Shown here in pieces: positions 27,667 through 30,354 of a DNA stretch of 32,000 nucleotides (position 1 is its first letter; each line of letters opens with the position of its first letter). The stretch is from Erysipelotrichaceae bacterium (GTDB lineage: Bacteria > Bacillota_I > Bacilli_A > Erysipelotrichales > Coprobacillaceae). The DNA is taken from the NCBI GenBank assembly GCA_028698185.1, contig JAQVDW010000014.1, forward strand, positions 1 through 32,000, read 5' to 3'. A program made the position numbers and the translations under genes. Under the pieces are notes generated by a model, which saw only the letters and a program-made list of their open reading frames with translations, was not told the origin of the DNA and ran no database searches.

Positions 27667-30354
27667 TTGGAATACATGGATGTTTATAACAAGTGGTTGA
27701 ACGCCGATTTGACCCCGGAATTGAAAGAAGAAATCACCAGGCTTACCGAAGATGAGATCAAGGATATCTTCGGTGCGAAGCTGAAGTTTGGAACCGGCGG
27801 GGTGCGGGAAATCCTCGGGGTGGGACCCTCACGTCTCAATGTCTTCACGATCCGCAAACTGGCGGAAGGTCTGGCCCGATATATCGACGCCTATGTGGGT
27901 GACCACCAGAAGGCGGCGGTGATTGCCTATGACAACCGCGCCTATTCGAAGGAGTTCTCGGCCATTGTCGCTTCGGTCCTGGCCAACCATGACATCAAGG
28001 TCTACCTGTTCGACGACCTGCGTCCGACCCCGGAACTGTCATTTGCGATCCAGCAGCTCAAGGCCTTCGCCGGGGTTGTCATCACGGCCAGCCACAACAC
28101 CAAAGAATACAACGGCTTCAAGGTTTACAACCATTATGGCAACCAGTGCGTTGTCCATGAGACTAACCGGATCTATGAGTACATCAACATGGTCGAAGAC
28201 GGCTTCGATGTCGTCCTGGCAAACGAAGCTAAAGAAAAGCAGTATGTCGAGCTGATCGGCGATGCCATCGACCAGAAATATTACGAACTGCTTGAAAAGG
28301 TGAAGTACAACGATGTCGACTACCAGGCGACCAAGATTGTCTTCTCATCGCAACATGGGACCTCGTTCGTTCCGGTTACGACGATGTTCGACCGCCGCAA
28401 AGTCAACTATGAAATCGTCAAGGAACAATGTTTCCCTTCGACCGAGTTCATCAACACGCCCAACCCGAATCCGGAAAACAAGCATGCTTTCGACATGGGA
28501 ATCGAACTGGCGAAAAAAGTCGACGCCAAATATGTGATCACGACCGACCCTGATTGCGACCGGCTGGGAATCGCCGTGGAACACAACGGCAAGTTCGTCT
28601 TTTTGACCGGTAACCAGACCGGAGCCATCTTGCTTGAGTACATCTTGGGCACATTGCAAAAACAAGGCAAGCTCTCTGACAACACGATCATTTTCGATAC
28701 GGTGGTCACCAGCTCGCTAGGCAAAGTGATCTCCAAGAACTACGGTGTGAAAAACCAGACGACCCTGACCGGGTTCAAGTTCATCGGTGAGCTGATCTGC
28801 GAATACGAACGGACCGAAGAGTTCGATTTCGTTTTCGGTTACGAGGAATCGTACGGTTATCTTTTCAGCGGCATTTCCAAAGACAAGGATGCGGTACAAT
28901 CGTGCATGGTGCTCGCCGAAGTGGCCAACTATTACGCAGCCAAGGGCAAAGACCTGGTAGATGTCCTAAACGACATCTACCACAAATACGGTTACTATAT
29001 CGATGTAAGCAAATCGAAAAAGCTCAAGGACTCCAGCGTCATCGTCGACAACATCCGCAAACAGAAGATCGCCAAGATCGGCGGGCTTAATGTCACCGGA
29101 ATGGAGGACTTCGCCAACGACAACGTCTTCGTGCGTCATTCGTACAAGATATTGCCCAAGTCGAATGTTTTGAAATACTATCTTGAAGACGGTTCATGGT
29201 TCGCGGTGCGCCCGAGCGGGACCGAGCCGAAGTGCAAGTTTTATTACTGCGTGGTGGGGACGACCAAACAGGCGGCAATGGACAAGCAAAAACTGATCGA
29301 AGAAGATCTGATGAACCTGATCGAGACCAAACAGGAACGCAAGGTGGCTTTCATCACTGGCGTTTCCGGACAGGACGGATTCTACCTGTCAAGGTTCCTT
29401 TTGGAAAAAGGCTATGAAGTCCATGGGATGATGCGCCGTTTTTCAGGGAGCGAAATCGACCTGGAAGCCCAGGTGCTTGAAGGGATGGCCAACCAGTCGT
29501 TCTATCTCCATTACGGGGATCTGACGGATGGGACGAACATCAACCGCCTGATCGAACAGATCAGACCGGATGAGGTGTACAACCTGGCTTCGCAGTCGTT
29601 CGTTTCGACCTCTTATGAGATTCCCGAATACACCAACGATGTCAATTCACTAGGAGCGATCCGGCTTCTTGACGCGATCCACAAAACAAAACTCAACGCC
29701 AAATATTTCCAGGCATCGTCATGTGTCATGTATGGCAACAATTTCGACCATGTGCCACAAAATGAGCTGACACCGTTCGAACCGAACTCGCCTTATGGCA
29801 TTTCGAAATTGAATGCCCACTGGACGACGGTGATGTATCGCGAGTCGTACAACATCTTCGCCTGCAACGGGATCATGTTTAACCACGAATCGCCACGGCG
29901 CGACAGCAAGTATGTGACCCGCAAGATTACCAAAGCGGTAGCTAGAATCGCCCAGGGCAAACAGGAAAAGCTGACTCTTGGGAATCTTGATGCCAAACGC
30001 GACTGGGGCTTCGCCGGCGACTATGTCGTGGGAATGTGGCTGATGCTCCAGGAAGCGGTGCCGGGCGATTATGTCCTGGCGACCAATGAGGCCCATAGTG
30101 TCCGTGAGTTCGTCGAACTGGCATTCAGGACCGTGGGAATCGAGATTGAGTGGCGCGACAAGGGGATCGATGAAAAAGGTTACGATAAGAAAACCGGCCG
30201 GCTTCTAGTCGACATCGACTCCAAATATTTCCGTCCGACCAGCATCAAGGAGCTTCGGGGCGACAATAGCAAGGCAACCAAGACCCTGGGATGGCAACGC
30301 GAGTATGCCTTCAAGGACCTGGTTGAACTAATGGTTAAAGCTGACATGTACTAA
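27667..30354 (+). CDS. Fusion protein: PgcA-type phosphomannomutase/phosphoglucomutase (aa 1-~555) plus a GDP-mannose 4,6-dehydratase-like SDR domain (aa ~557-895)
   Basis: A single uninterrupted 895-aa frame. N-terminal part: 'GTGGVRE', phosphoserine loop 'TASHNTKEYNGFKVY', metal loop 'TDPDCDRLG', sugar loop 'GYEESYGY' and phosphate loop 'RPSGTEPKCKFY'. C-terminal part: 'KVAFITGVSGQDGFYLSRFLLEKGYEVHGMMRR', 'SPYGISK' and 'MFNHESPRR...YVTRKIT', typical of Gmd. The start is TTG 27667 (GAGG 8 nt upstream) or ATG 27676. Confidence 0.85.
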   Translation: MEYMDVYNKWLNADLTPELKEEITRLTEDEIKDIFGAKLKFGTGGVREILGVGPSRLNVFTIRKLAEGLARYIDAYVGDHQKAAVIAYDNRAYSKEFSAIVASVLANHDIKVYLFDDLRPTPELSFAIQQLKAFAGVVITASHNTKEYNGFKVYNHYGNQCVVHETNRIYEYINMVEDGFDVVLANEAKEKQYVELIGDAIDQKYYELLEKVKYNDVDYQATKIVFSSQHGTSFVPVTTMFDRRKVNYEIVKEQCFPSTEFINTPNPNPENKHAFDMGIELAKKVDAKYVITTDPDCDRLGIAVEHNGKFVFLTGNQTGAILLEYILGTLQKQGKLSDNTIIFDTVVTSSLGKVISKNYGVKNQTTLTGFKFIGELICEYERTEEFDFVFGYEESYGYLFSGISKDKDAVQSCMVLAEVANYYAAKGKDLVDVLNDIYHKYGYYIDVSKSKKLKDSSVIVDNIRKQKIAKIGGLNVTGMEDFANDNVFVRHSYKILPKSNVLKYYLEDGSWFAVRPSGTEPKCKFYYCVVGTTKQAAMDKQKLIEEDLMNLIETKQERKVAFITGVSGQDGFYLSRFLLEKGYEVHGMMRRFSGSEIDLEAQVLEGMANQSFYLHYGDLTDGTNINRLIEQIRPDEVYNLASQSFVSTSYEIPEYTNDVNSLGAIRLLDAIHKTKLNAKYFQASSCVMYGNNFDHVPQNELTPFEPNSPYGISKLNAHWTTVMYRESYNIFACNGIMFNHESPRRDSKYVTRKITKAVARIAQGKQEKLTLGNLDAKRDWGFAGDYVVGMWLMLQEAVPGDYVLATNEAHSVREFVELAFRTVGIEIEWRDKGIDEKGYDKKTGRLLVDIDSKYFRPTSIKELRGDNSKATKTLGWQREYAFKDLVELMVKADMY

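Follow-up and report, generated by a model that had tools for sequence, protein, structure and literature searches.

One open reading frame in the window (the whole stretch of 32,000 nucleotides analysed here) encodes a PgcA/PGM2-type phosphohexomutase fused to a domain that resembles the enzyme Gmd (GDP-mannose 4,6-dehydratase) but lacks its catalytic glutamate. The fusion is genuine, old, constrained, rare and vertically maintained, and its occurrence is confined to one small clade of gut-type Coprobacillaceae (Erysipelotrichales). The function of its second half is probably not the one implied by the name given in databases. The sequence comparisons described below lead us to a specific proposal, to which we give about an even chance: a mutase that supplies mannose-1-phosphate, joined to a GDP-hexose C4-redox module that is of the epimerase type and does not dehydrate.

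The frame opens with TTG and contains no internal stop codon, and its start region (GAGGT, 8 nt, then TTG GAA TAC ATG) is kept in four loci compared at the DNA level. Pfam places PGM_PMM domains I–IV at residues 39–527 and GDP_Man_Dehyd (PF16363) at residues 562–889, the latter spanning model positions 1–332 of 332 with 417.5 bits. Against the NCBIfam gmd model (TIGR01472) the fusion protein scores 471.6 bits, with a cutoff of 415. These full-length matches in an unbroken frame bear out the initial annotation, which had described a single 895-aa frame joining a complete mutase to a complete Gmd-family domain with almost no linker. The junction reads as it was given there, ...LIETKQE-RKVAFITGVSGQDG, and the connector between the two domains is about six residues long: in an AF2 model, a helix (534–553) is followed by coil (554–559) and then by a Rossmann strand (560–564). 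Stand-alone Gmds start with M(K/S)KVALITG, and stand-alone mutases stop at about query residue 537–557. Because a purine-rich AGGAA sits 6 nt 5' of the GTG codon of V560, a putative internal start at that codon is possible.

So short a connector resembles a lost stop codon, and the initial annotation had suggested either a recent loss of this kind between adjacent genes or an assembly error. We consider it very improbable that two adjacent genes were joined artificially, whether through an indel introduced in sequencing or assembly or through a missed stop codon. The uninterrupted frame of ~895 aa is found in 16 near-full-length sequences that have the same junction and are 83–100% identical. 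They fall into two 90%-identity clusters, and the assemblies behind them, from NCBI, ENA and Logan, are independent. Among the contigs that bear them are ones of 2.57–2.88 Mb, two of which are complete Coprobacillaceae chromosomes, one of these with two copies of the fusion. Comparison of orthologous loci, which had been proposed as a check, reproduced the read-through: the junction frame is identical in four independent loci, with many synonymous differences and no indels at the DNA level. The junction is likewise identical across an alignment of 15 sequences (14 fusion members plus the window copy). With independent assemblies in agreement, two complete chromosomes among them, an assembly error is excluded. 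Furthermore, no stand-alone gene carrying the S-C-V motif of the second half (SCV, see below) was found in any scanned collection.

The divergence among fusions contradicts a recent event. Between orthologues dS is ~1.6–1.7, between two paralogues of one genome it is ~0.49, and both halves are under strong purifying selection, with omega ranging from 0.04 to 0.076 for the mutase half and from 0.01 to 0.064 for the half derived from a short-chain dehydrogenase/reductase (SDR). For the window compared with locus L001 (dS 1.6–1.7), omega is 0.073 in the mutase half and 0.057–0.058 in the SDR half, and the SDR half of the paralogue pair in locus L007 gives 0.010 at a dS of 0.49.

In exhaustive searches that took in 1.84 and 5.8 billion proteins as well as 185,579 species genomes, the fusion was not found outside this small Coprobacillaceae clade. 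In a phmmer search over 1.84 billion representatives, one fragment from the same clade crossed the junction, and the next match (451 bits) covered the mutase only. The back-translated SCV motif occurred in the 185,579 species genomes only within the fusion ORFs of two Coprobacillaceae chromosomes, and in JGI metagenomes there was nothing beyond chance matches. The initial annotation knew of no description of this architecture, and none was found in the literature searched. It had also allowed that the architecture might prove common and already annotated; common it is not, being very rare, but NCBI nr does contain it, as entries MDD3028206.1 and MDD3809854.1, both titled 'GDP-mannose 4,6-dehydratase'.

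Table 1. Features of the fusion gene and its surroundings, in window coordinates.
Feature	Position	Strand	Basis or remark
rmlA-rmlC-rmlB-rmlD-like genes, dTDP-L-rhamnose pathway	22995..26324	+	Translations; Pfam for 22995-23870; gene calls with Pfam in L008, which is syntenic
Terminator-like hairpin closing the rml-like block	26375-26389		Pattern match
ManC-type mannose-1-phosphate guanylyltransferase, without PMI domain	26588..27652	+	Pfam NTP_transferase, 149 bits
Fusion ORF, phosphohexomutase plus Gmd-like SDR	27667..30354	+	895 aa; coordinates include stop codon
Mutase half, residues 1-557, PgcA/PGM2-type alpha-D-phosphohexomutase	27667..29337	+	PGM_PMM_I-IV
Phosphoserine loop T140-A-S142-H-N-T145, Pro to Thr	28084..28101	+	Residues 140-145; translation, alignment
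Metal-binding loop D294-P-D-C-D-R299	28546..28563	+	Translation; invariant in 15-sequence alignment
Sugar-binding loop G391-Y-E-E-S-Y-G397	28837..28857	+	Translation; invariant in 15-sequence alignment
Phosphate-binding loop R515-P-S-G-T-E-P521	29209..29229	+	Translation; invariant in 15-sequence alignment
Junction T-K-Q-E-R-K, residues 554-559	29326..29343	+	AF2 secondary structure; leads from mutase terminal helix to Rossmann strand beta-1
Gmd-derived extended-SDR half, residues 558-895	29338..30351	+	GDP_Man_Dehyd 1-332/332
Rossmann motif G565-V-S-G568-Q-D-G571	29359..29379	+	Alignment to canonical Gmds
S685-C686-V687 at GMD catalytic fingerprint T-S-E site; dehydratase Glu missing	29719..29727	+	Alignments
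Y710-G-I-S-K714, SDR Yx3K redox dyad, kept	29794..29808	+	Alignments
N739-H-E-S-P-R-R-D746, substrate-pocket motif; invariant Gly to Asp746	29881..29904	+	Alignments
Terminator-like hairpin, 11-bp stem plus T-run, 5 nt past fusion stop codon	30359..30398	+	Consensus-pattern match only
GT2 glycosyltransferase, first gene of downstream glycan-assembly block	30619..31377	+	Pfam

The mutase half retains all four signature loops listed in the initial annotation, each readable in the translation, and Pfam PGM_PMM domains I, II, III and IV all score above their cutoffs, which places it in the superfamily. It has the same length as stand-alone PgcA/PGM2-type mutases (~557 aa) and has in common with those of Bacillota the four domains, the catalytic Ser142 and the metal, sugar and phosphate loops. 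Unlike stand-alone mutases it has no stop codon, and the frame runs on into the SDR domain. It is at most 53% identical to any of them, and 49% identical to the nearest named one, 'phospho-sugar mutase [Thomasclavelia sp.]' (P0008). The phosphoserine loop had been noted to read TASHNT in place of the usual TASHNP, and this proved to be a property of the clade: TASHNT is present in 15/15 fusion proteins and TASHNP in 118/118 of the nearest stand-alone mutases. P145T is the only change in the loop, which keeps His143 and Asn144 along with the catalytic serine. Altogether, 12 positions with at least 95% conservation in the nearest mutases are altered in the fusion clade, including P145T, R129Q and R405K. 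The AF2 model has pLDDT mostly >90 over this half, for which a structure sequence search found no close solved structure (best match 76 bits). We presume that it is a phosphomannomutase (PMM) that feeds ManC; the choice of PMM over PGM specificity is drawn from genomic linkage to ManC alone, seen in all four loci.

ManC is indeed encoded separately and immediately upstream, as first reported: in the window it ends 14 nt before the fusion ORF, and in L001, L002 and L008 too it is the gene that directly precedes the fusion. The protein matches NCBIfam GMP_PMI (TIGR01479) with 273 bits over model positions 3–341 of 467. Since its orthologues are called at 347 aa, its start is probably the ATG at 26609. 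The surroundings are those of an ABC-transporter-type cell-surface polysaccharide locus, the glycan-assembly block going on in L002 and L008 with Bac_transf, two GT4 genes, Wzm, Wzt and three more GT4 genes. Neither Fcl, Rmd nor an aminotransferase was found in the window, L001, L002 or L008, so these loci show no enzyme for a 4-keto-6-deoxy product. The genome from which the window comes may still have a gene for a canonical Gmd or for a reductase at a site beyond the stretch. In L007, the second fusion paralogue is followed immediately downstream by a canonical Gmd (478.6 bits, QAATSEMFG), and the island also contains an Fcl-like gene. The fused SDR domain is not redundant with a true Gmd, since its omega of 0.010 persists beside this canonical enzyme. 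L013 also has a Gmd-family gene immediately downstream of the fusion, here a partial ORF of 99 aa that stops short of the catalytic motif.

The SDR half is a full-length extended-SDR match to canonical Gmds such as PDB 2z1m (Aquifex aeolicus), 6gpj (human) and 1db3 (E. coli), with 370–375 bits to solved Gmds. Its identity to canonical Gmds is 50–62%, and its nearest stand-alone relative is the Clostridium perfringens Gmd. It sits on a long stem branch, with ~50% identity to outgroups as compared with 58–61% for sister Gmds, and differs from canonical Gmds in being fused behind a 557-aa mutase and in usually having no Fcl or Rmd alongside. GxxGxxG, RR, Yx3K, NHESPRR, KRDWG and RPx are all shared with them. 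In the alignment the NADP motifs, including the 2'-phosphate pair R590-R591 C-terminal of the Rossmann motif, and the redox triad S685, Y710 and K714 are intact. Because 86 of the 96 columns invariant over 12 diverse canonical Gmds are kept (including GxxGxxG, RR, Y710, K714, NHESPRR and KRDWG), the domain, judged by its residues, is not decaying. The ten altered columns include G746D, G831D and E859S.

In the fingerprint of GMD, [ST]SE...Yx3K, Glu is the one additional catalytic residue and the only one specific to dehydration (PMC8987622 Table 1). At this site, which the initial annotation overlooked, 15/15 fusion proteins have S-C-V, with Val for Glu, and 120/120 of the nearest Gmds have T-S-E, with Glu. 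The Glu is also present in the human, Aquifex and L007 enzymes and in diverse representative canonical Gmds. Solved Gmds read QASTSE(L/M)(Y/F)G where the fusion reads QASSCVMYG, and Val687 falls in the column that is Glu in 2z1m and 5in4 and Q in the 6gpk variant. As the only dehydration residue of Gmd has been lost, the SDR half is most likely not the dehydratase of the pathway, and the activity of GDP-mannose 4,6-dehydratase that the initial annotation assigned to it as step 3 is doubtful. AF2 confidence is low precisely at the SDR active-site loops, so active-site geometry cannot be argued from the model.

A second family of Gmd-like fusions also lacks the Glu. These proteins (P0307), ~632–650 aa long and named 'GDP-mannose 4,6-dehydratase' at NCBI, belong to Acholeplasmatales/Anaeroplasmataceae and form at least 120 clusters, 120/120 of them Glu-less. 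In both families a Glu-less Gmd-derived domain lies C-terminal to a GDP-mannose-supply enzyme and adjoins ManC in glycan loci, but the partner in P0307 is a type-I phosphomannose isomerase (PMI) and not a mutase. The PMI fusions are widespread, whereas the mutase fusion makes up only two clusters, and the domains themselves are only ~46% identical. Derived residues shared with the window clade are S642 (97/120), F681 (119/120) and D/E746 (79/120), the window having S642, F681 and D746; Cys686 is present in 29/120. The two families group in 157/200 NJ bootstraps, with both on long branches and the F–P distance (0.89) greater than the F–clostridial one (0.55). The NADP RR pair kept in the window is lost in the PMI-fused family (replaced by QS), 43% of its members have another residue for the middle Gly of GxxGxxG, and the +2 fingerprint residue, Val in the window, is Tyr or Gln. 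The triad, however, is among the most conserved positions ([ST] 119/120, Tyr 115/120 and Lys 120/120, with a column mean of 0.70), which points to retained redox chemistry. We did not find Gmd, Fcl or a reductase in the glycan loci of this family.

The fusion could still be a true bifunctional PMM/GDP-mannose 4,6-dehydratase in which Cys686 and/or Asp746 (or Tyr710 plus water) stand in for the Glu, with reduction of the 4-keto-6-deoxy product left to the domain itself or to an enzyme whose gene lies at another site. We think this rather unlikely. Its score is above the gmd equivalog cutoff and it is 60–62% identical to genuine Gmds, yet the Glu, named as the single additional catalytic residue (PMC8987622), is present in every canonical Gmd examined. 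Cys686 is at the catalytic-acid position of RmlB-type and TunA-type enzymes, and a +1 Cys is the acid in the TunA 'TCE' dehydratase (PMC8987622 Table 1). G746D, for its part, adds a carboxylate beside NHESPRR that recurs in 79/120 PMI-fused Glu-less members and could be a relocated acid/base. In that family, however, positions +1 and +2 vary widely, which would be unexpected if they held a catalytic acid/base. The genomic context argues against dehydration as well: in 3/4 loci a 4-reductase, an epimerase and an aminotransferase are absent beside the fusion, and L007, with its GDP-fucose genes, has a separate canonical Gmd, yet the fused domain there has an omega of 0.01.

It is also unlikely, in our view, that the Gmd-like half has no catalytic role and binds ligands instead, either as a GDP-sugar and/or NADP(H) sensor that would control the mutase allosterically (feedback at pathway entry) or as a docking module that would co-assemble with other pathway enzymes. 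SDR-derived sensors such as NmrA/HSCARG provide a precedent. The fusion joins non-consecutive steps, which fits end-product sensing better than channelling, and the same type of domain has been joined to PMI, another GDP-mannose supply enzyme. While the eroded cofactor motifs of the PMI-fused family would suit a sensor, the cofactor and triad residues are all intact in the window clade, and [ST]-Tyr-Lys is strongly conserved even in the PMI-fused proteins. Moreover, omega of the SDR half is equal to or below that of the catalytic mutase half. The Gmd-family genes directly downstream of the fusion in L007 (canonical) and L013 (partial) are compatible with hetero-oligomerisation.

We therefore return to a non-dehydrating redox module as our preferred reading. 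The mutase half would convert Man-6-P to Man-1-P, and upstream ManC would then produce GDP-Man. The SDR half descends from a GDP-mannose 4,6-dehydratase, keeping the NADP motifs, the Ser-Tyr-Lys triad and most nucleotide-sugar-pocket residues, with S-C-V for T-S-E marking the predicted loss of dehydration. It would most likely act on the GDP-mannose made next to it as a C4-oxidation-initiated GDP-hexose-modifying module, epimerase-type by fingerprint. We infer that it binds GDP-mannose; that its chemistry would be epimerisation or oxidation, and not dehydration or regulation, is the least certain part. More broadly, we lean towards the view that the S-C-V domain and the PMI-fused Glu-less family represent an unrecognised Gmd-derived functional class. 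This would be either a novel activity that modifies GDP-hexoses (such as a GDP-mannose C4 epimerase or oxidase whose product is a GDP-sugar not so far among the known glycan donors of bacteria) or a GDP-sugar/NADP(H)-sensing module gating entry to the GDP-mannose pathway, and either way hundreds of 'GDP-mannose 4,6-dehydratase' entries would be misannotated.

Should the fused domain prove not to be a dehydratase, that label would be wrong for this clade and for at least 120 PMI-fused clusters, and predictions of fucose or 6-deoxyhexose synthesis would be misleading for gut Erysipelotrichales and Acholeplasmatales. The fusion shows that a score past a curated family cutoff can mask the loss of a defining catalytic residue. 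The fusion protein is a compact and directly testable system that could reveal new GDP-sugar-modifying chemistry on a Gmd scaffold, or a case in which an enzyme domain was co-opted for feedback sensing. The protein further offers a natural 'E-to-V' variant for the study of how the single-Glu mechanism of Gmd evolved.

Among known systems, GalE-type epimerases have the fingerprint [ST]...Yx3K and no acid/base for dehydration (PMC8987622 Table 1), and the C. jejuni C4-dehydrogenase Cj1427 oxidises a GDP-manno-configured sugar at C4 without dehydration (PMC10680097). The SDR half is like GalE-type NS-SDR 4-epimerases and Cj1427 in fingerprint and predicted chemistry only: with 60.6 bits against galE TIGR01179 (cutoff 262.3), the fusion falls outside the GalE sequence family. 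Val at +2 provides no base and Cys at +1 a possible acid, which is compatible with the GalE fingerprint and not diagnostic of it. The literature searched yielded no known GDP-mannose 4-epimerase. It is well known that bifunctional PMI-GMP enzymes (AlgA/WbpW/ManC type) fuse two non-consecutive GDP-mannose steps, with PMM, the step between them, encoded apart. These enzymes (NCBIfam TIGR01479, 'mannose-1-phosphate guanylyltransferase/mannose-6-phosphate isomerase') skip a step just as the window fusion does, so step-skipping in the GDP-mannose pathway is not unprecedented. Unlike the window fusion, they combine a nucleotidyltransferase with a cupin PMI, and both of their halves are catalytically canonical.

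The open reading frame at 27667..30354 (+) encodes one polypeptide of 895 amino acids, free of internal stops in our translation, that joins a complete PgcA-type phosphohexomutase (residues 1–557) to a complete SDR domain of the Gmd family (558–895). The mutase catalytic loops are all intact, and the protein scores 471.6 bits against the NCBIfam gmd equivalog TIGR01472, whose cutoff is 415. On these points, and on the separate upstream manC gene, the initial annotation was right. At the junction the sequence is ...NLIETKQE-RKVAFITGVSGQDG; for stand-alone mutases the C terminus falls at about query residue 537–557, and stand-alone Gmds begin with M(K/S)KVALITG. 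In an AlphaFold2 model (pLDDT 81.8, pTM 0.65) the last mutase helix (534–553) is followed by six coil residues and then by Rossmann strand beta-1 at 560–564. The start context (GAGGT, 8 nt, TTG) is conserved, which backs TTG as the start of the fusion.

Features of the window and of the related loci L013, L014 and L016
Feature	Position	Description
rmlA, rmlC, rmlB, rmlD		first in gene order, before the 26375-26389 hairpin; window
Terminator-like hairpin	26375-26389	between rmlD and manC
manC	between hairpin 26375-26389 and fusion	ends 14 nt upstream of fusion; ManC-type guanylyltransferase, no PMI domain
Terminator-like hairpin, strong	about 30359-30388	directly after fusion
GT2 gene	after hairpin downstream of fusion	last in described gene order
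PGM_PMM_I, II, III, IV	residues 39-527	Pfam
GDP_Man_Dehyd, full-length	residues 562-889	Pfam, 417.5 bits; model positions 1-332 of 332
Loop TASHNT	residues 140-145	phosphohexomutase loop, translation
Loop DPDCDR	residues 294-299	phosphohexomutase loop, translation
Loop GYEESYG	residues 391-397	phosphohexomutase loop, translation
Loop RPSGTEP	residues 515-521	phosphohexomutase loop, translation
PMI::Gmd-like fusion P0307	L013:1059-2981
PMI::Gmd-like fusion P0406	L014:7001-8923
PMI::Gmd-like fusion P0508	L016:7001-8899

A purine-rich AGGAA (window 29329-29347) lies 6 nt 5' of an in-frame GTG, the codon of Val560, and could mark a site, either a remnant or still functional, where ribosomes bind and begin translating the SDR half on its own; at L001, another locus with the fusion, AAGGAAG lies 9 nt upstream of the corresponding position. 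The structural model (m66bfe4d64263) falls below a confidence of 50 at residues 644–657, 686–710, 737–748 and 857–861, segments that coincide exactly with SDR active-site elements bearing clade-specific substitutions, and the mutase half is mostly above 90. The low values may reflect a clash of the query with the canonical Gmd rows of its alignment, or partial misalignment in our MAFFT alignment A2. A2 places the Gmd N-terminal ‘ITGxTGQDGSYLxEFLL’ on the mutase domain-III segment ‘LTGNQTGAILLEYIL’ (mutase residues ~312–327); the local resemblance is fortuitous and can spoil mixed alignments of the fusion.

The fusion had been ascribed to either a recent stop-codon loss or an assembly error, and neither origin survives comparison with other copies. 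Among 5.8 billion clusters, a word-indexed search picked out two of full-length fusions, P0001 (13 members, 100% identical to the window copy) and P0002 (895 aa, three members, 84% identical), drawn from NCBI MAGs, ENA and Logan assemblies with contigs of up to 2.88 Mb. The junction ETK(Q/E)E(R/K)KVAFITG is common to all 15 aligned proteins, and comparison of four loci at the DNA level, one of the checks suggested for the junction, found an open read-through without indels and with numerous synonymous differences. Since the same fusion and junction recur across independent assemblies, we ruled out an assembly or frameshift artefact, for which we would allow only the slightest chance. By the Nei-Gojobori method, dS is 1.6–1.7 between the window copy and L001 (omega 0.073 for the mutase half and 0.058 for the SDR half) and 0.49–0.70 between the window copy and L008, a further fusion locus (omega 0.061 and 0.064); selection on both halves is strongly purifying. 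With dS of 0.49–1.7 and paralogues in existence, a recent loss of a stop codon is rejected. The carriers belong to the Coprobacillaceae (Erysipelotrichales). GC content is uniform along the window, and with no anomaly there we ruled out horizontal import of the locus.

Outside this clade the combination was not found. When 1.84 billion 50%-identity representatives were searched exhaustively with phmmer, one junction-spanning protein was returned, a 423-aa fragment from the same clade (P0255, 95% identity), and the next best match (451 bits) covered the mutase region only; neither this search nor that of the 5.8 billion clusters yielded a PGM+Gmd fusion of independent origin. The other long proteins among the phmmer matches were PMI-Gmd-like, Gmd-aminotransferase, PGM-PMI, UDPGP-PGM and PGM-LPG_synthase_TM fusions and an intein-containing Gmd; fusions of sugar-nucleotide enzymes are thus common, but that of a mutase with Gmd is not. 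The intein-containing protein (P0372, 736 aa) is a Gmd split by an intein-like insertion at residues ~149–510 (Intein_splicing match). Another match, P0396 (601 aa), is a Gmd-family protein in which the catalytic Glu is replaced (T-S-A) and the RR pair reads VR, with a C-terminal extension of ~260 aa in which a match to GHMP_kinases_C is faint. The literature searched contains no description of a PMM-Gmd fusion, in agreement with the initial annotation, nor of a GDP-mannose 4-epimerase or a GDP-talose pathway.

The completeness of the SDR domain, which the initial annotation had recognized, does not extend to its proposed dehydratase step: the catalytic Glu is absent, which the annotation overlooked. 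The QASTSE(L/M)(Y/F)G of solved Gmds reads QASSCVMYG in the fusion, and the alignment places Val687 at the position of the Glu; PDB 6gpk has Gln there. Glu is present in 120/120 of the nearest stand-alone Gmds (≤63% identity), and S685-C686-V687 (S-C-V) in all 15 fusion proteins. The GMD fingerprint is [ST]SE...Yx3K, with Glu as the sole catalytic residue beyond the redox triad (PMC8987622), so that the fusion lacks a defining GMD feature despite passing the family-model cutoff. Twelve diverse canonical Gmds have 96 invariant columns, and the fusion retains 86 of them, including GxxGxxG, the RR pair, S685, Y710, K714, NHESPRR and KRDWG, which leaves the cofactor motifs and redox triad intact; the ten changes are A642S, Y681F, S686C, E687V, I720T, L737M, G746D, F749Y, G831D and E859S. 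In the tree the domain branches beside clostridial Gmds on a long stem, and its identity to the human and Aquifex enzymes is ~50%, versus 58–61% for its sister Gmds; stem and divergence indicate a burst of change that then gave way to strong constraint. We also considered a stand-alone S-C-V Gmd or unfused precursor. Motif scans of GTDB genomes returned only the fusions and one chance match (a Phocaeicola glycosidase), those of metagenomes four chance matches only, and genes neighbouring the closest stand-alone mutases were unrelated; this candidate was dropped.

Fusion loci L002 and L008 reach past the equivalent of the window end and carry Bac_transf and GT4 genes, then Wzm, a Wzt that has a Wzt_C domain, and further GT4 genes, the make-up of an ABC-transporter-dependent glycan locus. 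Neither the window nor L001, L002 or L008 contains an Fcl, an Rmd, an aminotransferase or a second Gmd; L001 has one more SDR, upstream of manC, which was ruled out as a Gmd (48 bits). No Rfam RNA element matched in the window. Three window ORFs (314, 486 and 432 aa; 15633-17982 and 21700-22998) lack Pfam matches at E≤1e-5; the 432-aa ORF heads the glycan locus, between a GT4 gene and rmlA, and the equivalent position in L008 holds a 422-aa gene, also without a match. At 2256-3360 (-) two adjoining Chromate_transp ORFs of 178 and 192 aa, with a slight overlap, make up a split ChrA-type pair, divergent from a LysR regulator gene at 3447-4322.

We propose, with roughly even confidence, that the SDR half catalyses a reaction initiated by C4 oxidation without dehydration, yielding a GDP-hexose for the glycosyltransferases of the locus. 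Man-1-P made by the mutase half would go to ManC, and the SDR half would take up the resulting GDP-mannose and act on it without 4,6-dehydration, in an epimerase-type reaction judging from its fingerprint; GalE-type 4-epimerases have [ST]...Yx3K, with neither acid nor base (PMC8987622). Cj1427 of C. jejuni shows that C4 oxidation of GDP-manno sugars is possible without dehydration (PMC10680097). Direct use of the GDP-hexose would account for there being no need of a downstream reductase. Dehydration by way of Cys686 and/or Asp746 seems unlikely to us. In TunA (fingerprint TCE) Cys serves as acid, with Glu as base (PMC8987622). A genuine Gmd product, GDP-4-keto-6-deoxymannose, would require an enzyme of the Fcl, Rmd or aminotransferase type, none of which is present in the window, L001, L002 or L008. 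We give a comparably low probability to a regulatory role, in which the SDR half, non-catalytic itself, would control the mutase as a sensor of GDP-sugar/NADP(H) or as a docking domain.

A second paralogue, P0134 (894 aa), occurs besides P0002 on the chromosome OY780959.1. It lies on an island (L007:6081-16291, about 1.02–1.04 Mb) flanked by IS110, IS3, Mutator and IS66 transposases, together with an Fcl-like gene (470 bits), ManC, three Acyl_transf_3 genes, a truncated RmlC-like cupin (126 aa), a 312-aa SDR and, directly downstream of the fusion, a canonical Gmd (343 aa, 478.6 bits, QAATSEMFG). The island has the look of a mobile GDP-6-deoxyhexose cassette. The paralogues differ by a dS of ~0.49, and their SDR halves have a dN of 0.005 and an omega of 0.010; beside a real Gmd, this indicates no relaxation, unlike what would be expected of a redundant dehydratase domain.

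Loss of the Glu is also seen in a larger family. P0307, in which a Gmd-like domain with the motif T-C-Q is fused behind a type-I phosphomannose isomerase, represents at least 120 clusters (52–100% identity, full coverage) from Acholeplasmatales and Anaeroplasmataceae. Glu occupies the catalytic position in 0/120 (Y in 70, Q in 42, L in 5 and H in 3); the triad is kept ([ST] 119/120, Tyr 115/120, Lys 120/120), there is variation at +1 and +2, and QS stands in place of RR, with loss of the NADP motif. At positions invariant in canonical Gmds, the family has derived states in common with the window clade: S642 in 97/120, F681 in 119/120, D/E746 in 79/120 and Cys686 in 29/120. Neighbor joining united the two Glu-less lineages in 157 of 200 bootstrap replicates; both are long branches, and the result is compatible with common origin or convergence. 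The genes adjoin ManC in glycan loci where Gmd, Fcl and a reductase were not found, and at one locus the fusion is followed immediately downstream by another gene of the Gmd family. These proteins too are named ‘GDP-mannose 4,6-dehydratase’ at NCBI, probably a misannotation of the whole class.

The window fusion, whose NCBI records (MDD3028206.1 and MDD3809854.1) are titled ‘GDP-mannose 4,6-dehydratase [Erysipelotrichaceae bacterium]’, is on our reading clearly misannotated, and there is a fair chance that the name hides a new GDP-sugar activity or a regulatory mechanism. The two halves come from well-known superfamilies, and PMI-GMP enzymes (TIGR01479) are a classical precedent for fusing non-consecutive steps of the GDP-mannose pathway, as the mutase-Gmd-like fusion does. 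What is new is the architecture, which is confined to one clade, together with the putative S-C-V active site and its apparent link to a large, unrecognized family of Glu-less Gmd-like proteins.
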